A stretch of 64,000 nt of DNA from an uncultured bacterium (lineage in GTDB: Bacteria; Verrucomicrobiota; Verrucomicrobiia; Verrucomicrobiales; DEV007), in the NCBI GenBank assembly GCA_963977015.1, contig CAXBMO010000010.1:32001-96000 (forward strand), written 5' to 3'. The notes under the pieces were generated by a model. It did not search any database. It was not told the DNA's origin and saw only the letters and a list, made by a program, of their open reading frames with translations. Numbering within the stretch: the first letter of the stretch is position 1; each line of letters starts with the position of its first letter. Of this stretch, positions 4,722 through 33,079 are shown one piece after another. The translations under genes and the position numbers were made by a program.

Positions 4722-4937
4722 GCCAAAAATGATTGGATCGATCAAAACCGCAGTTCGTCAAAAACTTAAACCAAAGGATTTTCTTGAATTGTGCGGATTG
4801 ATCGCTGGTCTATGCTCCAAATTCTAGCTCAGAGCTAGGCATTTACTGGAAAGTCCTATCTATCTGCCAAAAGAGCTTGAATTAATAAGCGAACTTTAAA
4901 TAATGGGCCACATTCGTTGGATCCCGACCTAAATGTG

Positions 4938-6065
4938 ATGAACACTCCCCACAAACTCCTCACGCTACTCACCGCTGCCACATTCCTGGCGACGGCAAAT
5001 TCCTACGCCATCCTTGGCATCCTCAAAGATGACAAAATGCAGGAAGTGCCCGATTCGGCTGAGTTGGCCAAACAAGAAGCTGCTGCATTAAAAGCCTACG
5101 AAAGTGCCCAAAAAGCGCAGAGCGACGGCAAGCTGGGGAGGGCGAAGGACATTTATGAAGATGTCGTCGAAGACTATCCGCTGACTTCGTTTGCTCCCAA
5201 AGCTCAGTTTGAAATTGGAGCGATTTACGAGAAGGAAGGCCGCGAAGATCGGGCGTTCGATTCCTATCAGGATTTGATCAATCGATACACTGGCAGTGAT
5301 CTCTTTGGGGAAGCGGTCAGACGCCAGTTCGAAATCACCAACCGCTCGATGAACACGAAAACGAGTCGTGTGATAGGTCTGATTCCTTCGAAAGCGCAAC
5401 CTTCACGGGTTATTGAAATGTTTCGTCAGATTGCAGACAATGCTCCCTACAGCAAATATGCGCCTCTCGCGATTTACCAAATTGGCGTGATCAATCGAAA
5501 AATTGGGAAAGAGCCGGAATCCATTTTGGCGTTTGAAGAAGTCGTGGAGAGCTATCCGGATGATCCAAAGGCGAAGGAAGCGAGCCTGCAAATCATTGAA
5601 GTTCGAGGAGACCGTGACACGCGGGATGGACGGCAGTTGGAGCGCTATCAGGATGAAGTCGCTGTCTTCATTGAGAACAACGAAGAGGATCCCAGAAGCG
5701 AGGAATTGCGGGCAGAGCTTGGCAAACTGCAAGACCGGGAGGCTGAGAAAAAGTTCAATATCGGGCGATACTACGAGAAAAAAGGAAATATGAGGGCGGC
5801 TGCGATCTACTATCAGGACGTTCTGTCCGGGACACCGGTTTACGGTGCCGCTCAGGATCGGCTTAAGGTGTTGAGCGCGCAGGATCCCAACGTGGTGTTG
5901 CCACCTCGGGCAACCAAGCAAAAAGTTGTGGCGCCGAGCAATGTGAAAGATCGCCCGGATTACTATGGCCCTCCGCCACCAAAACCGCCAAAGTTGGAAG
6001 CGGCTCCCAAGCCTCAGATGCGGGTTCCGGAAGACGATGTCCTTCCGATTCCGTCAGCATCCTGA
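4938..6065 (+). CDS. bamD: Outer membrane protein assembly factor BamD-like TPR protein
   Basis: Signal peptide, tandem TPR repeats, IGRYYEKKG..RAAAIYY; adjacent to lptE. Confidence 0.75.
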   Translation: MNTPHKLLTLLTAATFLATANSYAILGILKDDKMQEVPDSAELAKQEAAALKAYESAQKAQSDGKLGRAKDIYEDVVEDYPLTSFAPKAQFEIGAIYEKEGREDRAFDSYQDLINRYTGSDLFGEAVRRQFEITNRSMNTKTSRVIGLIPSKAQPSRVIEMFRQIADNAPYSKYAPLAIYQIGVINRKIGKEPESILAFEEVVESYPDDPKAKEASLQIIEVRGDRDTRDGRQLERYQDEVAVFIENNEEDPRSEELRAELGKLQDREAEKKFNIGRYYEKKGNMRAAAIYYQDVLSGTPVYGAAQDRLKVLSAQDPNVVLPPRATKQKVVAPSNVKDRPDYYGPPPPKPPKLEAAPKPQMRVPEDDVLPIPSAS

Positions 6066-6152
6066 CATTGACGCCAGCATTTTTTGACAAAGTGTTGGAA
6101 GCTGCCGCGTTCTCAGCCTAAACAGAGCGACGTCTTTTAGATTCGACTTACC

Positions 6153-6740
6153 ATGAAATCGCGCACGATTCTTCCTTCGTTTCTCAGCTTGGCTGCACTA
6201 TCACTGATTTTGAGTGGTTGTGCAGGCTACCAATTGGGCCCCCAGAAGCCTGTTGAATACGCTGATATCAGCAAGCTTTACGTTCCCACGTTTTCGAACG
6301 AGACCTTGGAACCACGCCTTGCGACGATCGTAACCAACTCGGTGATCAGCTTGTTGCAGCAGGACGGTACCTACGAGATTACGACCAAAGAAAAGGCAGA
6401 CGCGGAATTGACCGGAAGGATTCGGCGCATCGAGAAGCAGCAGCAACGGTCTGCCAACAACCAACTTCTCCGGACTCGGGAACTTCTTCTCCAATTGGAA
6501 GTTGCTTTCGATTTGCAAGACCTTCGGACGGGAGAAAAGATCAAGCGCGCCAACCCTTTTGGGGTTGATGCAGACGATCGGGACATTGTCACCGGGCGAC
6601 GCCGGGCCAGCAACCGGGTTGTCGGAAGCACATCACTGTTCTTGGATCCCAACTTTCAACTTTCGGAACGCGAAGCGCTTCCTCTGGCGGCAGAGGATGC
6701 GGCGGAGCAACTAGTCAGTGCGATTACGGAGGGCTGGTAA
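6153..6740 (+). CDS. lptE: LPS assembly lipoprotein LptE
   Basis: Lipobox LSGC followed by GYQLG; LYVPTFSNET.EP; ADAELTG.I. Confidence 0.8.
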   Translation: MKSRTILPSFLSLAALSLILSGCAGYQLGPQKPVEYADISKLYVPTFSNETLEPRLATIVTNSVISLLQQDGTYEITTKEKADAELTGRIRRIEKQQQRSANNQLLRTRELLLQLEVAFDLQDLRTGEKIKRANPFGVDADDRDIVTGRRRASNRVVGSTSLFLDPNFQLSEREALPLAAEDAAEQLVSAITEGW

Positions 6741-8776: not shown

Positions 8777-9298
8777 ATGATTTCGATGATTCAGGACGGG
8801 GTTCAGTTCGTCAAAAAGAACGACCTACCAACCATTTGGGCAGCCTTTGTGAGTCACGACGCCCATCCATTGCTCCAATTCGTCAAGTATGGCGTATGTG
8901 GTGTGATGGCGGTGGTGGTGCACAATGCGATTTTTTACGCTCTCGCCTACACTCGGTTTCCAGCCATTGAGGGAATGACGATTGGTGACCAACCATTATC
9001 CGATGGGTTGAGAGCAAGGAATGTTGTGATCTGCAATTCGGTAGGCTTTGCCTTTGCCAACGTCGTTGCCTATTTGACCAACGTACTTTGGGTCTTTCGG
9101 TCAGGCCGCCATCATCGGGTGCTTGAGTTTGTGCTTTTCACCCTGGTTGCGCTCATTGGATTTGTTGCCGGGCTTGCAGGTGGACCTTTGCTGATCAAGC
9201 TGTTTGGAATATCGACCCACATTGCGCAGTTTCTTTTCGTGTTTACGTCAGTTGTGGTGAATTACCTCAGTCGTAAGTTTCTCATTTTCAAACGGTAA
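8777..9298 (+). CDS. GtrA family membrane protein
   Basis: QFVKYGVCG, N..WVF and VNYLSRKFLIF motifs; four hydrophobic segments. Confidence 0.88.
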   Translation: MISMIQDGVQFVKKNDLPTIWAAFVSHDAHPLLQFVKYGVCGVMAVVVHNAIFYALAYTRFPAIEGMTIGDQPLSDGLRARNVVICNSVGFAFANVVAYLTNVLWVFRSGRHHRVLEFVLFTLVALIGFVAGLAGGPLLIKLFGISTHIAQFLFVFTSVVVNYLSRKFLIFKR

Positions 9299-9360
9299 CA
9301 ATGTTTCCATAAATTGGGTTGATTGTTAGGGTTTCCTGAATATCTAGTGAGTGTACTAGT

Positions 9361-10197
9361 ATGATGGACTCCAAGGAAATCCGAAAACGCATTCGCCATT
9401 TAATCGCGGAGCAAGGCCCCGTTGCGAGGCGGGACGTTGTCGCAGCGTTTCGGAAGGACGGTGTTCCCAATGAGGAGATCGATAAAACGATCAACAAACT
9501 CATTAGTCTCCAAGTTCTTTATCCCTGTTCGCGCCAACGGGTTTGGGACCAGGATGAGAAGGCCCTGTTGATCGCGGAGGCCAAGCGGTTGATCGCTAAA
9601 GCGCCGCAAACCCGGGTCACGTTGTCAAGGGAGCTGGAGAAACTGGACACGGGTGCCAGCATCAATTTTCTGCGACAGGTTCTCTTTGAACAGCTTCAGG
9701 AAGATCCCGAGGTGTTCCTTCATTTTGGCCGCAACGGGCAGTTTTTGCTGAGCACGGAAAAGCCCGACGTGGAGGAGACCTTGAAGCCGGTGATTCCGCG
9801 AGTGCTGTCGCTTCAAAAAGCCGGTTACGATCGTGGAGAGTTGGAGTCAGCCCTTTTTGGAGGACAAGGCTCCTCTGGAACGTTTCAGGGAAGACTTCGG
9901 TCGCCCTCTCAGGAATCCGGGCTCGACTTTCAACGCGATGCTTGTGAATTGCTGGTTTTTGCCTGGCAAGACGCGGAGAGCGAGGAAACGCGCCAGAGTT
10001 TGGAAGGCGTCATGGTTACCTTGGGACTGGATCCGGTCGAAACGGCAGACAGCACGGCTGAGTTCAGCGGAGTGCTCCATCAATGCCGCGAAAAAGTCAG
10101 CAAAGGCGAGAAGGTGCGGGTGCAGTTGCCGGGATGGCGTCTCAAAAACAGCCGCGGCGATTATCTGATCGCGAAAGCCCACGTAGAGAAAATTTAA
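9361..10197 (+). CDS. Hypothetical protein: winged-helix-like N-terminus and GrpE-like C-terminal domain
   Basis: The C-terminus LGLDPV...F...LH...GEKVRVQLPGW.L...LI.KA.V resembles the GrpE beta domain. The N-terminus has helical wHTH-like segments. Confidence 0.55.
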   Translation: MMDSKEIRKRIRHLIAEQGPVARRDVVAAFRKDGVPNEEIDKTINKLISLQVLYPCSRQRVWDQDEKALLIAEAKRLIAKAPQTRVTLSRELEKLDTGASINFLRQVLFEQLQEDPEVFLHFGRNGQFLLSTEKPDVEETLKPVIPRVLSLQKAGYDRGELESALFGGQGSSGTFQGRLRSPSQESGLDFQRDACELLVFAWQDAESEETRQSLEGVMVTLGLDPVETADSTAEFSGVLHQCREKVSKGEKVRVQLPGWRLKNSRGDYLIAKAHVEKI

Positions 10198-10219
10198 ACA
10201 ACCGAGTTCACGAACCATT

Positions 10220-11569
10220 ATGTCATTCAACGAACAAACCATCTCGATCGACTTCGGAAACAGTTACTGCAAGGTCGGTTTGAGAATCGAAGGAAACGGA
10301 GACTCGCAGTTGTTGCGGGATGGAAGTTTCAGCTTCGATGAAGGGAATTTCTGCATCCCGACGATTGTGGGGCAGCGCAAAAGCGATGGAATTTTTCGCT
10401 ATGGAACGGAGGTGCTGGAGGAAGGAAGCGAGGACATCAAGGTCTACCGGAACTGGAAACCGCTCTTTTTCGAAGACAGCGATCAGGCGAGCCAGGATTC
10501 CCTGCGTAATGCTCTGATGGAAGATGGTCACGATGTCGAGGATCTCGCCCTGGGATATTTTACGTGGCTGCGTCGTCAGGTTGAGCCGATTTGCCGTCAA
10601 AATCATGAGCTCGAGGACCTCGAGAAACTTCCGGTCCGTATTACGCTGCCCGCGTTTGGAAATGTGGCTCGCGCGACGGAGCGTTTGGAAGAACTCCTTT
10701 CGGAGAGCGGTTGGGAGCTTTGCCATACCGAGCAAGCCATTCCCGAACCCGTTGCCAATGCGATCGGCGCATTTGCCCAGGGGCGTAACGCCGTTTGGTC
10801 GCCTCCCCAGATGCAGGGTGGCCGGCCGATGCCGATGCAAAGCGACAGTCTGATGCCTCATTATGGAACCATGTTTGAGGATTCACCTTTTCTTGAAGCG
10901 TTCCGGATGAACGCGATGCAGGATCTGGACGATCCCATGCATTGGGTGCTTGTTGTTGATTTGGGCGGATATACTCTCGATTTCGCGATGCTGGGGTTTG
11001 ACCTGGAAGATCTGAGCCAAACCTTCGATAGTTCGGCGCTGCAAAGCGATCCTCCTCGGTTCGCGAGGATTTCCTATCCTCTCGGTGTGATGGATCTCGA
11101 TCAGATGGTTCACGATGCGTTGCCGCCTGATCAGCAGGAAGCCATGCAAATCATGAATTCGGATGTTGATCAGCGGCGTCTCGAGACGTTCCACCGGCTT
11201 TGCTACAGCAATTTCCGCCCTTTCCGCGTTGGCCGGACGGAAATTGGCAGTGGTTCGAATGGCGAACTCGTGCGAGGCGCGGTGGACGCTTTTGCGGTCA
11301 AGATCCAGCAGCTTGCCGAGAAATTTATGGATTCTCATCAGTTCCCCCGCGTTGACCAACTGGTCCTCACCGGAGGTGGATCCAACATTCCGGCAGTTCG
11401 CAAAGTTCTCATCGATCAACTCCGGCCGGGGCACACCCACGGTGCGGTGAATCGAGAGGCGGAGCTCGGTGTGGAGGAAGATGTTTATACCGAGTTGGGC
11501 CACGATCTGGTGCGTGGTGCAACGGCGACCGGTGGAACGAGCGTCTACTTCGAGTTTTTGGCCAGTTAG
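10220..11569 (+). CDS. Hsp70/actin-like ATPase, nucleotide-binding domain only
   Basis: ISIDFGNS (phosphate 1), IPEPVANA (connect 1), LVVDLGGYTLDF (phosphate 2), LVLTGGGSNIP (adenosine). It ends at 449 aa with no substrate-binding domain. Confidence 0.8.
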   Translation: MSFNEQTISIDFGNSYCKVGLRIEGNGDSQLLRDGSFSFDEGNFCIPTIVGQRKSDGIFRYGTEVLEEGSEDIKVYRNWKPLFFEDSDQASQDSLRNALMEDGHDVEDLALGYFTWLRRQVEPICRQNHELEDLEKLPVRITLPAFGNVARATERLEELLSESGWELCHTEQAIPEPVANAIGAFAQGRNAVWSPPQMQGGRPMPMQSDSLMPHYGTMFEDSPFLEAFRMNAMQDLDDPMHWVLVVDLGGYTLDFAMLGFDLEDLSQTFDSSALQSDPPRFARISYPLGVMDLDQMVHDALPPDQQEAMQIMNSDVDQRRLETFHRLCYSNFRPFRVGRTEIGSGSNGELVRGAVDAFAVKIQQLAEKFMDSHQFPRVDQLVLTGGGSNIPAVRKVLIDQLRPGHTHGAVNREAELGVEEDVYTELGHDLVRGATATGGTSVYFEFLAS

Positions 11570-11738: not shown

Positions 11739-13208
11739 GTGCAGATCATCAAAGCCCTTCTTCTCAGCCTCGTGGTATTGGCCCACGTCCCGATTGTGTC
11801 GGGCGGCCAGCCCAACATTCTCTTCATCGTCTCAGACGATTTATCGGCCACGGCTCTGGGGGCCTACGGCAATGAAGTTTGTAAAACGCCGAATCTGGAT
11901 CGGTTGGCGAGCGAGGGAATCCAATTCAATCGAGCCTATTGTCAGTATCCCGTTTGCGGAGCTTCCCGGGCATCGTTCATGAGTGGATTGTATCCCGAAA
12001 CGACCGGCTTCTTGGGAAACATCAAGACCTTGGGGAGTTACCGAAAGGTGAATCCAACTTACGCGGACCATCCCAGCATTGGCGGGTTCCTGAGGCGAAA
12101 TGGTTATGTTTCCGCGCGCGTTTCCAAGATCTATCATATGGGCGTTCCCGGAGGAATTGAAGCGGGCGAACCGGGGGGCGATGAGCCGGATTCCTGGGAT
12201 CGCGCCTTCGATGTTTGGGCGCCGGAAACGGGGAGTCCGGGAGTTTTTACCAATCTTTCTCCGGCCCATAAGCATTGGGGAGGAGCTTTCGTGCGGGTTG
12301 TCGTTCCCGACGATCAATCCGCGACGCAAGCAGATGAAATGGCGACGACGCAGGCAATTGGGATCCTCGAGAATCGCGCCTTGCACCGAAATAATACCAA
12401 TTTTCTGAAGCCGGGAGCCCCGCTCTTTCTCGCCGTGGGATTGGTTCGTCCACATGTGCCTCTCGTTGCTCCCGAACGCCATTTCCGGCACTACAACGCA
12501 GAAAATGTAACGCTTCCTGAGGTTGTCGATGGTGATTTGGATGATGTGCCCGCTCCCAATCGTAAGAAAGCGAATGCGACTTCCTACAAGATGTCTCCGG
12601 ATCAGGCTCAGGAGGCGCTCGCGGCATATTACGCCAGCGTGACCTACATGGATGAACAGGTTGGCCGACTCCTTGATGCCCTCGATCGCCTGGAAATGGC
12701 AAACGACACCATCGTCGTCTTCATTTCGGACCATGGCTGGCTTTTGGGCGAGCATGGATCCTGGCAGAAGTCGAATCTGTTTGATCCCGCCTGCCGGGTT
12801 CCGCTGATCATTCGGGCGCCGGGACGACAAGTTGGTGCCGGTAGAGCTGACGCCCATTTGGTGGAGTTGGTCGACCTCTATCCGACGTTGGCCGAATTGG
12901 CCGGTTTGAAGGAAAAGGCACCCGAAAGTCTGGAGGGTCTCTCGCTCGTTCCGTTGCTCGAGAATCCCGACTTTTCGGGGTGGCCGCGAGAGGCAAGTTT
13001 GACGGTGATGGGAACTAAAAAGGCGACTCACCGATCGTTGCGATCCGAGGACTACCGCTACAGCCGGTATGCCGAGGGAGAAGAAGAACTCTACGATCAC
13101 GTCAACGATGCCCGCGAGATCACCAATCAAGCCAGCAATCCCGAGTTCGCACCGGTTCTGGATCGGCTTCGAAGCGCCATGGACGAAATCATCGCCAAAC
13201 CCAAATAA
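11739..13208 (+). CDS. Sulfatase (iduronate-2-sulfatase-like)
   Basis: PNILFIVSDDL, FGly motif CGASRAS..SG, RPHVP, SDHG..LGEHG.WQK. Confidence 0.95.
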   Translation: MQIIKALLLSLVVLAHVPIVSGGQPNILFIVSDDLSATALGAYGNEVCKTPNLDRLASEGIQFNRAYCQYPVCGASRASFMSGLYPETTGFLGNIKTLGSYRKVNPTYADHPSIGGFLRRNGYVSARVSKIYHMGVPGGIEAGEPGGDEPDSWDRAFDVWAPETGSPGVFTNLSPAHKHWGGAFVRVVVPDDQSATQADEMATTQAIGILENRALHRNNTNFLKPGAPLFLAVGLVRPHVPLVAPERHFRHYNAENVTLPEVVDGDLDDVPAPNRKKANATSYKMSPDQAQEALAAYYASVTYMDEQVGRLLDALDRLEMANDTIVVFISDHGWLLGEHGSWQKSNLFDPACRVPLIIRAPGRQVGAGRADAHLVELVDLYPTLAELAGLKEKAPESLEGLSLVPLLENPDFSGWPREASLTVMGTKKATHRSLRSEDYRYSRYAEGEEELYDHVNDAREITNQASNPEFAPVLDRLRSAMDEIIAKPK

Positions 13209-13654: not shown

Positions 13655-14413
13655 CTATTCGTCCTTATCCAGATATTCGAGTTCCTTCCGCATCACCCGG
13701 CCAACCCGGTGTTTGGCGAGGTAAACCTGGGCGCTGGTGACACCCAATTCCTTGCGGACCTCATCCACTTCCCAGCCCTTCACGACGTAACAGTAAAAAA
13801 TCTGATACTGCTGGGGTGAAACCTTGGCCTTGGTCCGCTTGAGCGCCATGTCGGTCAGGTTTCCCTTCCATTCCCGCTCCCAGAGGTGCTCAAACCCGAA
13901 ATTGGAGTTGTCGGGAATCATGTCCATCGTCGCGGTATTGCGATCATCGTAGGCGTCTTTGGGCCTTCCCTGATAGATCTCCTGCTGCTTGCGCGTCCGA
14001 AACTGATCCGCGATCCGCCATCGCGTCTGATTCATGAGCCACGCCTTGAACGAGCCTCCATCGCGGGTGAAGTTCTTCTTCTTCATGTTCTTCGCCACCC
14101 GAATGAAGGTTTCCTGAACCACTTCATTGGACTCGGTTTCGCTTAGACCCGCTTTGCAGGCGACCTTGAAGACAAAACTCGAGTAGGTCCGGAAAAACTC
14201 GTCCCAGCTAGCTTGATCGTCCCAATCCTTGAGCTTTTGAATCAGAGTTTTGCGTGTTGCCGGGTAGTTGAAGCCCTTCGATGCCTTTTTCTTGCCCTTG
14301 GTTACTTCGGCAGCGTCCTCTTCAACGACTTCGGCTTCTGATTCTTTCTCTGGTTCGCTCAAAATTTGGATTGCTGGGGTTTGCTTAGAAGAGCTTGATG
14401 GATTGGCGCTCAA
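13655..14413 (-). CDS. ECF RNA polymerase sigma factor
   Basis: TRKTLI..L..W.D..SW.EF, EVVQETF, GSFKAWL, and region 4 LGVTSAQVYLAKHRV. Start codon uncertain. Confidence 0.9.
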   Translation of the reverse strand: MSANPSSSSKQTPAIQILSEPEKESEAEVVEEDAAEVTKGKKKASKGFNYPATRKTLIQKLKDWDDQASWDEFFRTYSSFVFKVACKAGLSETESNEVVQETFIRVAKNMKKKNFTRDGGSFKAWLMNQTRWRIADQFRTRKQQEIYQGRPKDAYDDRNTATMDMIPDNSNFGFEHLWEREWKGNLTDMALKRTKAKVSPQQYQIFYCYVVKGWEVDEVRKELGVTSAQVYLAKHRVGRVMRKELEYLDKDE

Positions 14414-31976: not shown

Positions 31977-33079
31977 CAATCGTCTCCGTGCCAGCAGTCC
32001 ATTCCGGTAATCGATTGTTGTAAGGCGTGATCGCAAAGAACCAGTGCGGTCATTGCTTCGACCATCGGGACCGCCCGAGGCAACACACAGGGGTCGTGCC
32101 GGCCACGAGCCGCCAATTCGGTGTCTTTGCCGCCTTCTTCGACCGTTTTCTGATTCTGGAGAATCGTCGCAGTCGGTTTAAACGCGATTCGGAAAAAAAT
32201 TGGCTCGCCATTCGAAATACCACCCTGAATTCCGCCACTCCGATTGGACCGAGTTCGCACGCGATCGCCTTCCATGTAGAATTCGTCGTTGTGCTCCCGT
32301 CCGGTCAACTTGGTGCCTTCAAAGCCCGAGCCAATTTCGAATCCCTTGGTCGCGGGCAGGCTCATCATCGCCTTGGCCAAATCCGCCTCCAGTTTGTCGA
32401 AAACGGGTTCTCCCCAGCCGGGAGGACAGCCACGAGCGACGCATTCGACGATACCTCCGATGGAGTTGCCTTCGCTTCTGACGTCTTCGATGAGTTTGAT
32501 CATTTCGTCGACCATTTCCGGATCCCCGGTTCTGACGATGTTGGATTCGATCGTCTCAAATTGGACGCTTTCCGGATCCACGTTTGCGACCAGGTTTTGA
32601 ATCGTTTTGACGTAAGCGAGGATTTCCAAATCGGGAGCAAGCTTGGCGAGCACCTTCTTCGCGACGACCGCAGCGGCCACACGCCCAATCGTTTCCCGGG
32701 CACTGGCTCGACCGCCGCCCTGCCAATTTCGAATCCCATATTTGACCTGGTAGGTGAAATCCGCGTGGCTCGGGCGATACTTGGTCTGCATCTCGCTGTA
32801 GGCACCGGGCCGCTGATCCTTGTTCCGCACCAGAACCGCGATCGGGGTCCCAATCGTCTTTCCTTCGAATGTGCCTGACAAAATCTCACAGGAATCCGCT
32901 TCCTTGCGAGGAGTAACGATCTTGCTTTGGCCGGGTTTCCGGCGGTCGAGATCAACTTGAATATCTGCTTCCGTAAGTTCGATCCCGGGAGGGCAACCGT
33001 CGATCACCACGCCGACGCCACCACCGTGCGATTCACCCCACGTTGAAATTCGGAAATTTTGGCCAAAAGAGCTTCCCAT
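31976..33079 (-). CDS. aroC: Chorismate synthase
   Basis: [42 protein letters not shown]. Confidence 0.98.

Follow-up and report, generated by a model that had tools for sequence, protein, structure and literature searches.

A candidate nucleotide switch: a stand-alone Hsp70-type ATPase domain paired with a winged-helix, GrpE-like protein in an uncultured verrucomicrobial bacterium

Introduction

GrpE is the nucleotide exchange factor (NEF) of DnaK and, in the available portion of PMC4753570, the only known bacterial NEF type for Hsp70, with full chaperones as its substrates. As described there, the GrpE β-domain makes most of the contacts, wedges into the cleft of the nucleotide-binding domain (NBD) and rotates lobe IIB; all NEFs target lobe IIB, and ATP displaces them. 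Here, we analyze a gene pair in a stretch of 64,000 nt (the window: positions 32,001 to 96,000 of contig CAXBMO010000010.1, assembly GCA_963977015.1) from an uncultured member of the Verrucomicrobiales. Gene 1 (9361..10197, plus strand) is an open reading frame (ORF) of 278 aa for a partner protein with a predicted tandem winged helix and a GrpE-like domain. Gene 2 (10220..11569, plus strand) is an ORF of 449 aa for a stand-alone Hsp70-type NBD without a substrate-binding domain (SBD). We suggest, with a probability of roughly 0.55, that the pair is a dedicated two-protein nucleotide switch derived from Hsp70-GrpE.

The closest known kind of system is DnaK-GrpE itself (1DKG). The pair shares with it the Hsp70 NBD fold and all catalytic positions in gene 2, a helix pair and a β-domain remotely homologous to that of GrpE in the partner, and a predicted contact at lobes IB and IIB. 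It differs in gene 2, which lacks the linker, the SBD and the lid, has an insertion of ∼50 residues and reads GGYT rather than GGGT, and in gene 1, which lacks the long stalk, carries two predicted N-terminal winged-helix domains and fails to match the Pfam GrpE family. Moreover, no J-protein is linked to the pair. Elsewhere, the genome encodes an ordinary DnaK as well as an ordinary GrpE that adjoins a J-domain gene.

Among arrangements reported so far, the nearest is that of the GAP1-N2 systems, in which Hsp70 is encoded with GrpE and in some cases also with an NBD-only Hsp70. NBD-only Hsp70s together with GrpE have been reported in these GTPase-centered conflict systems (Kaur et al. 2020, PMC7159879), and the available part of that paper describes, as in the pair analyzed here, Hsp70 without a peptide-binding domain encoded with a GrpE-type factor outside classical proteostasis. 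The features given there are a GTPase core, FNIII-repeat proteins fused to DnaJ or TPR, a recognizable GrpE and an occurrence mainly in Actinobacteria and Firmicutes. By contrast, this pair consists of two genes only, with no GTPase, FNIII or J-domain gene, and is found in phyla of the Planctomycetota-Verrucomicrobiota-Chlamydiota (PVC) group and in Myxococcota.

Other systems share single features with the pair. Eukaryotic BAG-domain proteins, as covered in the available portion of PMC4753570, follow the same logic of a constant exchange module that binds the Hsp70 NBD combined with variable targeting domains; however, they have an unrelated helical-bundle fold, are eukaryotic and act on full-length Hsp70 chaperones. 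E. coli YegD (NF008673) and CnuD of CoCoNuT (PMC11090510) are, in the available parts of these sources, divergent bacterial Hsp70-like proteins outside the DnaK cycle, and the YegD model spans ∼450 aa. However, gene 2 scores 10.6 bits against the 331-bit cut-off of YegD, while CnuD, in the accessible text of its paper, keeps both NBD and SBD, with ATPase motifs that have degenerated, and is linked to GTPases of the McrBC type. These sources, in their available parts, do not describe a GrpE-like partner for YegD or CnuD, and "GrpE" occurs 0 times in the accessible text of the CoCoNuT paper (PMC11090510). Myxococcus GrpS differs in being a canonical GrpE, according to the available part of PMC10313047. 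A winged helix-turn-helix (wHTH) GrpE-like protein paired with an NBD-only Hsp70 was not described in the full-text literature covered, which leaves out most subscription journals and bioRxiv supplements. Finally, type II ParM-ParR partition systems also place an actin-fold ATPase beside a small adaptor of DNA-binding type, and a DNA-binding partner next to such an ATPase recalls ParR-ParM. They differ in that gene 2 is Hsp70-like by every ranked search and in the fold and predicted docking site of the adaptor.

Results

Relatives of gene 2 were scanned in one genome per species, which gave 29 loci, two of them (L013 and L018) without upstream DNA. In 26 of the remaining 27, the ATPase gene is immediately preceded by an ORF on the same strand that encodes the C-terminal domain of gene 1. 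At L029, this domain stands at the end of a protein of 451 aa (E 2.4e-8), and at L028, it is nowhere in the 10.8 kb of the locus. When all neighboring ORFs were clustered, only two gene clusters, the partner and the ATPase, were common across loci; a third widely conserved gene was not found among these ORFs, and the other clusters comprise few loci or antisense shadow ORFs. Such recurrence, at all but one of the 27 related loci that include upstream DNA, makes the pair more than a chance association. An initial annotation of this DNA had treated the two genes as a module and had named pair conservation, patchy distribution and defense-island enrichment as features of the neighborhoods to look for; the homologues do co-occur, so pair conservation was found, as was the patchy distribution described below. 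At L011 (Isosphaeraceae metagenome-assembled genome [MAG], 4901-5982), the partner lies in two overlapping frames, through a frameshift or an assembly error, and the ATPase gene is intact.

A second pair is present in the genome (L057 and L059; C10:124686-126293, minus strand), 82 kb away on the window's contig and outside the window. It has the same gene order, with a partner of 271 aa, an ATPase of 432 aa and a 21-nt spacer. Between the two pairs, the ATPases are 31% identical and the partners 32%, the latter in the C-terminal domain only. Across 23 pairs, the distance matrices of the C-terminal domain and the ATPase are correlated (Pearson 0.77, Spearman 0.44), and 0 of 2000 Mantel permutations reach this correlation. 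Because shared ancestry alone can give such a correlation, it argues for inheritance as a unit and not for contact.

Several lines of evidence place gene 2 with the Hsp70 NBDs. First, it contains the motifs IDFGNSY.KV, EPVANAIG, DLGGYT.DF and LTGGG.NIP of the Hsp70 family and the wider superfamily of acetate and sugar kinases, Hsc70 and actin (ASKHA). The phosphate-1 motif (10241..10276, plus strand; residues 8-19, ISIDFGNSYCKV) aligns with GIDLGTTN of DnaK, with D11 corresponding to DnaK D8. In the phosphate-2 motif (10952..10984, plus strand; residues 245-255, VVDLGGYTLDF), D247, T252 and D254 correspond to DnaK D194, T199 and D201, and Y251 stands for the third glycine. The adenosine motif (11366..11392, plus strand; residues 383-391, LTGGGSNIP) aligns with the LVGG..R.P motif of Hsp70s. 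Invariance and the family profile were based on an alignment of 38 gene 2 family sequences (A1). Invariant in all 38 are I10, D11, G13 and K18 in phosphate-1; R77, W79 and K80; E176 and P177; D247, G249, T252 and D254 in phosphate-2; and T384, G385, G386 and G387 in the adenosine motif, while Y251, at the position of the third glycine in DnaK GGGT, is at least 90% conserved. Residues of gene 2 and DnaK were matched by motif counting on an hhalign alignment to the genome's own DnaK and on the profile alignment to a PDB Hsp70. In this way, six of the invariant residues, D11, K80, E176, D247, T252 and D254, lie at DnaK catalytic positions, which we take to be D8, K70, E171, D194, T199 and D201 of E. 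coli DnaK. To judge from these conserved residues, gene 2 is a catalytically intact ATPase domain.

Second, profile and fold searches point the same way. The A1 profile matched 108 distinct PDB sequences at E ≤ 1, and the 60 listed are all Hsp70, DnaK or BiP NBDs (best E 4.7e-7). The AlphaFold2 (AF2) model of gene 2 (predicted local distance difference test [pLDDT] 87.4, predicted template modeling score [pTM] 0.87) shows no additional domain, and in a Foldseek search of this model against the PDB, all rows listed are of the Hsp70 family, with E 6e-14 to 1.5e-12 and TM scores by target of at most 0.65. MreB, ParM and FtsA are absent from the 60 profile matches and from the Foldseek rows listed. 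In hhalign, the gene 2 family (A1) aligns with the NBD of the genome's DnaK over 356 columns (E 3.4e-4). Third, gene 2 and all 38 relatives stop a few residues past the last NBD motif, VRGATATGG, in gene 2 at residue 449. The C terminus is a conserved hydrophobic tail, SVYFEF, in which S441 and F444 are at least 90% conserved. The interdomain linker, the substrate-binding β-domain and the helical lid are all absent, and compared with DnaK there is an insertion of ∼50 residues between the E176 and D247 motifs. Thus, by profile, predicted fold and catalytic residues, gene 2 is an Hsp70 NBD without an SBD. The Hsp70-type motifs, the end at 449 aa and GGYT for GGGT had all been read correctly in the initial annotation, and gene 2 groups with the Hsp70 NBDs rather than with MreB, ParM or FtsA.

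Named family models recognize the two proteins poorly. Pfam HSP70 (PF00012) does not match gene 2 at E ≤ 1, and none of the five whole-genome PF00012 matches lies at gene 2. With the DnaK models of NCBIfam, scores are 9.5-12.2 bits, where the cut-offs are 822 and 1002. Matches to actin-like families are all below cut-off: ParM_N 19.2 of 27.4 bits (E 0.0013), PilM_2 15.5 of 27 bits and Salactin 13.1 of 27.1 bits (E 0.05) in Pfam, and MamK 13 of 400 bits (E 0.037) in NCBIfam; FGGY_C is likewise faint. In Pfam, NCBIfam, PADLOC and PHROG, no family covers the gene 1 or the gene 2 protein, and the 60 relatives of gene 2 that were found are all unnamed or "hypothetical," with named sources in Verrucomicrobiota, Planctomycetota and Myxococcota/"Deltaproteobacteria." The genome also has two full-length Hsp70s and three partial PF00012 matches (C3:469883-470866, C3:457206-457838 and C9:43493-43852), which sit in frames of 644, 943 and 342 aa; divergent Hsp70-like proteins are numerous in it.

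The constant part of the partner family, common to the partners in 26 loci, is the GrpE-like domain (9907..10194, plus strand; residues 183-278), which is modeled as helices 184-204 and 208-220 followed by a β-domain (223-277). A single profile-profile comparison, specified beforehand, was made between A3 (25 C-domain sequences: the window's own and the partner genes of 24 related loci) and A4 (25 canonical GrpE proteins encoded by this genome and by other genomes of the phylum). In hhalign, A3 matched A4 with a probability of 80.5% (P 1.3e-5, score 39.8, 65 columns). The aligned motifs stand in the same order: G(L)..VGE.G..V.FDG..H with GrpE GV..I...G..FDP..HEA, and PGW.L...LL.KA.V with GY.L..RLLRPA.VVVS. 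Among the controls, the two reversed profiles scored 15.3 and 17.0, the unrelated profile A1 scored 17.3 and none of 30 column-shuffles exceeded 17.6, all with probabilities of at most 1.0%. Because the hhalign signal is far above these 33 controls, we call the C-terminal ∼95 residues of gene 1, by profile comparison, a remote relative of GrpE outside the Pfam GrpE family. In the Foldseek list for the gene 1 model, GrpE is the recurring non-winged-helix family, with six entries (9a81, 4ani, 1dkg, 3a6m, 9bls and 9blt; E 0.036-0.076). The structural search proposed in the initial annotation for both proteins was therefore clear for gene 2, which is Hsp70, and weak in the whole-model list for gene 1; its reading of gene 1 as ending in a GrpE-like β-domain without the long coiled coil is borne out by the hhalign result and the GrpE rows. 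Gene 1 has two winged-helix domains in place of the long GrpE coiled-coil stalk, and in the monomer model, the short helices 184-204 and 208-220 could make half of a GrpE-type helix bundle. Elsewhere in the genome, a 1367-aa frame has a full-length Pfam GrpE match (L031; C7:35899-36444, profile positions 4-164) of 28.9-30.3 bits, over the cut-off, ∼4.6 kb from C7:31100-31285, one of the genome's three J-domain genes; this frame and the J-domain gene may be another noncanonical chaperone module.

The GrpE-like domain is predicted to bind gene 2 at lobes IB and IIB. A complex modeled from gene 2 (A1) and the C-terminal domain of gene 1 (A3) reached an ipSAE of 0.79 (runs 0.79, 0.80 and 0.77), while the best of three controls reached 0.00; the runs agree in at least 83% of contacts, with a partner pLDDT of at least 86. 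The modeled contacts of gene 2 are residues 33-43, 55 and 67-72 in lobe IB, 319-339 in lobe IIB, and 410-429; those of gene 1 are in the first helix (180-204) and the β-strands (237-245 and 260-270). Residues 33-43 align in hhalign with the VLEN-SEG loop of DnaK, which we take to be the loop essential for stable GrpE binding. The contact at these lobes in the predicted complex is in line with the GrpE-DnaK-like interface that the initial annotation suggested looking for.

The N-terminal part of gene 1 is predicted to consist of winged-helix domain 1 (9361..9555, plus strand; residues 1-65) and winged-helix domain 2 (9550..9762, plus strand; residues 64-134), followed by short helices at 137-166 and a low-confidence linker (9862..9906, plus strand; residues 168-182, pLDDT <50). 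In the AF2 model (mean pLDDT 76.3), residues 4-62 and 66-131 form two helix-helix-helix-strand-strand units, each a three-helix bundle with a β-hairpin wing as in the winged-helix fold. Foldseek of the whole model returned tandem winged-helix rows (UFL1/DDRGK1, ScpB, SelB, RNA polymerase III subunits and ESCRT-II), none at E ≤ 0.001, and in a second structural look (VIA-align), winged-helix domain 1 filled the list. The wHTH-like helices first noted at the start of gene 1 are therefore seen in both the model and the structural comparison. By sequence, gene 1 has six relatives in a word-indexed search, no Pfam or NCBIfam match at E ≤ 1 and no convincing E-value in PADLOC. The partner proteins have 206-517 aa, and their N-terminal parts vary in length and sequence and mostly lack a Pfam match; where Pfam recognizes one, it is as a wHTH. 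The partner at L008 matches MarR_2 at 27.5 bits (cut-off 27.0), with HTH_20, IclR and DprA_WH slightly below their cut-offs. It is the only relative over the Pfam cut-off of a DNA-binding wHTH; L007 and L014 have weaker winged-helix-type matches. From its predicted fold, gene 1 may bind nucleic acid.

The family is rare and patchy. Among 200 other genomes sampled from the phylum, none has a relative of gene 2 at E ≤ 1e-10. Within the genus, all three of the other genomes carry the family (one to three copies each); beyond the genus, it is present in 1 of 21 other genera of the taxonomic family and, outside that taxonomic family, in none of 16 genomes of the order; its records nevertheless fall into three phyla, Verrucomicrobiota, Planctomycetota and Myxococcota. 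In a collection of 1.84 billion proteins, the C-domain profile matched 630 representatives at E ≤ 0.001, of which 210 were at E ≤ 1e-10; most of the 150 matches listed are proteins of 200-330 aa with the domain at the C terminus. The MAG labels of L004, L024 and L025 (Akkermansia muciniphila, Enterobacteriaceae and Alcaligenaceae) are odd next to the otherwise PVC/Myxococcota range; these may be misbinned or mislabeled contigs, or real transfers.

Six of the 150 listed matches are long proteins, known from sequences without genomic context, in which the domain occurs once to many times. P0079 (726 aa), the top match at 155 bits, has InPase, GNAT and DUF5661 domains and a winged-helix-like segment, followed by two tandem copies of the domain. 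P0080 (1005 aa) carries InPase and DUF5661 beside the GrpE-like domain, which in P0157 (1142 aa), a lambda-type portal protein, lies in a C-terminal extension. Of the other three, P0117 includes an ABC1 kinase-like domain, P0166 combines a 2'-5' RNA ligase domain with HTH_17, and P0198 (4370 aa) contains 16 stretches matched by the C-domain profile. The InPase region of P0079 matches 462 phage records, with annotations that include head and internal-head proteins, and it also matches minor-head, virion-structural and DarB-like PHROGs. InPase and portal fusions are described as packaged, injected polyvalent proteins in the available part of Iyer et al. 2017 (PMC5512222), in whose text "GrpE," "Hsp70" and "DnaK" occur 0 times each. 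In tblastn against 50,697 phage records, neither the window's C-terminal domain nor P0157 had a match. In viral contigs, P0079 had no pattern match, and of 80 pattern matches to gene 2 relatives (A1), 0 were confirmed.

The two genes are co-oriented and separated by a 22-nt gap (10198..10219, plus strand), in which a promoter/terminator scan found no terminator-like site; the short gap, the shared strand and the lack of such a site suggest that they are probably cotranscribed. In Pfam, the flanking ORFs match GtrA_DPMS_TM (upstream, 8777..9298; 54.5 bits) and Sulfatase (downstream, 11739..13208; 153.3 bits). The 62-nt spacer before gene 1 (9299-9360) has a G+C content of 35.5%, compared with 54.6% for the window. 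Within it, a conserved block of 38 nt (9311..9348, plus strand) is common to the three closest loci (the window, L001 and L002), whereas the intergenic DNA around it diverges. This block contains TTGATT (9319-9324), then 16 nt, then TATCTA (9341-9346) and is a candidate promoter/operator of the pair, which, on this sequence evidence, appears to have its own promoter or operator there. A promoter scan by consensus did not call the block; nothing in that scan rose above shuffles. A weak inverted repeat (9326-9337/9374-9385) spans the gene 1 start codon, and its half-site is not kept in L001. The layout between gtrA and a sulfatase gene and the AT-rich spacer were thus rightly described in the initial annotation, as was the absence of an adjacent J-domain gene: the genome's three PF00226 matches are on contigs 4, 7 and 18, and none is on contig 10. 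The examined neighbors of the pair are housekeeping-like (GtrA-like, a sugar-isomerase-type TIM barrel and a sulfatase), and so, by reading of translations alone, is the wider neighborhood (e.g., 13655-14413, minus strand, and 4917-6740, plus strand), with ECF-sigma-like, TPR lipoprotein-like and small lipoprotein ORFs. With regard to expression, no RNA data set with the pair was among the seven runs listed, and none of these contained half or more of the sampled words.

Discussion

We describe a gene pair in which, at 26 of 27 loci, a partner with a constant, remotely GrpE-related C-terminal domain precedes a stand-alone Hsp70-type NBD. Because its SBD is lost, gene 2 would not be a classical chaperone. 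We suggest that gene 1 is a private adaptor, the GrpE-like domain of which would clamp gene 2 at its upper lobes, IB and IIB. By analogy with GrpE and DnaK, this domain would favor an open, nucleotide-poor state of gene 2 and would be displaced by ATP. The tandem winged-helix module of gene 1 would tie the ATPase cycle to DNA or to another winged-helix ligand, and the ATP/ADP state of gene 2 and target binding by gene 1 would gate one another. The two genes duplicate and co-diverge together, and the pair is an accessory element that is patchily distributed. Exchange activity, DNA binding and a biological output are the parts of this model that we infer.

The initial annotation had likewise proposed a non-chaperone Hsp70 switch controlled by an exchange factor, and its architecture stands. 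In silico, the folds of both proteins, the remote homology of the end of gene 1 to GrpE, the linkage and co-divergence of the genes and the predicted IB/IIB interface are all in place, homologues co-occur, and gene 2 groups with Hsp70s.

A number of observations weigh against a switch of this kind. For the pair as a whole, no output or effector was identified. For gene 2, the probability of the hhalign match between A1 and DnaK is 37.6%. For the GrpE-like domain, Pfam GrpE (PF01025) matches 0 of 25 C-domain sequences at E ≤ 10, with merely scattered single hits to other Pfam families, and the PF01025 scan of the genome misses gene 1; the A3 profile (HMMER) finds no GrpE chain in the PDB at E ≤ 10, the best matches being a serpin and a designed protein at E ≥ 0.26. 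The hhalign match covers 65 columns, i.e., the end of the last helix and the β-domain, and not a whole GrpE, and the GrpE rows are weak, with none at E ≤ 0.001, in a Foldseek list made with the whole protein. For the complex, 116 of the 157 complexes with a solved structure reach the ipSAE mark, as do 2 of the 215 pairs that were mismatched, a calibration that holds only roughly here because our own alignments were used; moreover, the DnaK-GrpE complex has been solved, and the score may partly reflect the model's memory of it. Sequential contacts between gene 2 residues 38-43 and gene 1 residues 265-269 suggest strand pairing, which may differ from the GrpE wedge. The interface positions of gene 2 have a mean information of 1.87 bits compared with 2.38 bits elsewhere (9967 of 10000 permutations are as high or higher), and those of the gene 1 domain 2.22 compared with 2.40 bits, i.e., there is no conservation enrichment. 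Finally, the N-terminal module of the partners varies and mostly lacks a Pfam match, and tandem winged helices, as in the ScpB and ESCRT-II rows, are often protein binders and not DNA binders.

Among the alternatives, one that deserves attention, although we think it clearly less probable than a switch, is that the pair is an anti-phage, conflict or toxin-antitoxin-like module. Gene 1 would then be a DNA-binding autoregulator that holds or tunes the ATPase, and phage proteins would trigger or jam it; the copies of the domain in phage polyvalent proteins would be decoys for the host ATPase or would seize host Hsp70s. A small DNA-binding protein upstream of an enzyme is the layout of type II toxin-antitoxin operons. 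The distribution fits as well, being rare and patchy and yet extending over three phyla, with one to three copies per genome, and so does a partner with a variable N terminus and a constant C-terminal domain. In addition, the GrpE-like domain occurs in long proteins with phage features (P0079, P0080 and P0157), InPase/portal fusions are injected polyvalent proteins in the available part of PMC5512222, and the available part of PMC7159879 places NBD-only Hsp70 with GrpE in conflict systems. Structural neighbors in the Atlas include Hsp70-caspase and Hsp70-WD40 clusters, which we regard as a lead only. Together, the rare, multicopy, patchy distribution, the variable N terminus and the phage-borne domain copies point towards a conflict or accessory role. 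However, no effector gene (nuclease, pore-former, NADase or similar) and no third conserved gene is linked to the pair, and the examined neighbors are housekeeping-like. No PADLOC-DB 2.0 model fits, the nearest being SduA (E 0.0048, 14.4 bits, in the winged-helix stretch), ZacC (E 0.02) and PDC-M61B (E 0.039). Moreover, the 80 pattern matches in viral contigs yielded no confirmed gene 2 relative, tblastn with the window's own domain had no match in the 50,697 phage records, and only 6 of the 150 listed domain matches are long proteins.

It is also conceivable, although doubtful, that the C-terminal domain binds the ATPase without exchange activity, as a nucleotide-state-specific anchor or an inhibitor, or that its likeness to GrpE is convergent or spurious and the genes merely share an operon. 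Several of the points raised against a switch fit such a role: HMMER and Pfam see no GrpE, only 65 columns align, the long stalk is missing, the interface positions are not especially conserved, and the contacts resemble strand pairing and include a lineage-specific segment of gene 2 (410-429). By contrast, a spurious likeness is at odds with an hhalign signal far above 33 controls and with the motifs G..V..G..FDG..H, PGW.L and KA.V in GrpE order. A merely common operon is at odds with strict linkage at 26 of 27 loci and with co-divergence, and the predicted contacts fall on IB and IIB, the lobes on which NEFs act.

A bolder combination of the switch with the phage observations, to which we attach similarly little weight, is that the pair is a host sensor or switch in a phage-host arms race. 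A GrpE-derived, DNA-bound adaptor would check the ATPase, and phages would inject polyvalent head or portal proteins with one to many copies of the GrpE-like domain, which would jam the switch or commandeer host Hsp70-type ATPases on entry.

A ParM/ParR-like or actin-like cytomotive system, in which gene 2 would polymerize and gene 1 would link the filaments to DNA or cargo, is unlikely, given that gene 2 falls with Hsp70 in every ranked search, and we consider it by far the least probable reading: the faint ASKHA matches (ParM_N, Salactin, PilM and MamK) and phrog_691 "partition protein" (E 1.8e-4, 21.8 bits) that favor it are offset by actin-like scores far below their cut-offs (27 to 400 bits), by profile and fold searches in which only Hsp70 NBDs and no ParM, MreB or FtsA appear among the matches listed, by a partner predicted at lobes IB/IIB, whereas ParR binds ParM in the IA/IIA groove, by a gene order that is the reverse of parMR, and by the chromosomal location of the pair in two copies.

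We, therefore, return to the Hsp70-GrpE-derived switch as the preferred reading. If it is correct, the Hsp70-GrpE engine would have lost its client-binding half and gained a private adaptor with the look of a DNA-binding protein, and bacteria would have a counterpart to the BAG-type logic of "exchange domain plus targeting domain." This small family is tractable: it comprises two soluble proteins with no other conserved genes, and the predicted interface is open to mutational tests. The GrpE-like domain in phage polyvalent and portal-fusion proteins offers a route to what phages do with Hsp70-type ATPases on entry. Should the pair in fact take part in a phage-host arms race, the GrpE-like domain would be the first bacterial/phage Hsp70 exchange-factor module known to pass between hosts and viruses, and bacteria would have a second, specialized family of GrpE-derived cofactors.

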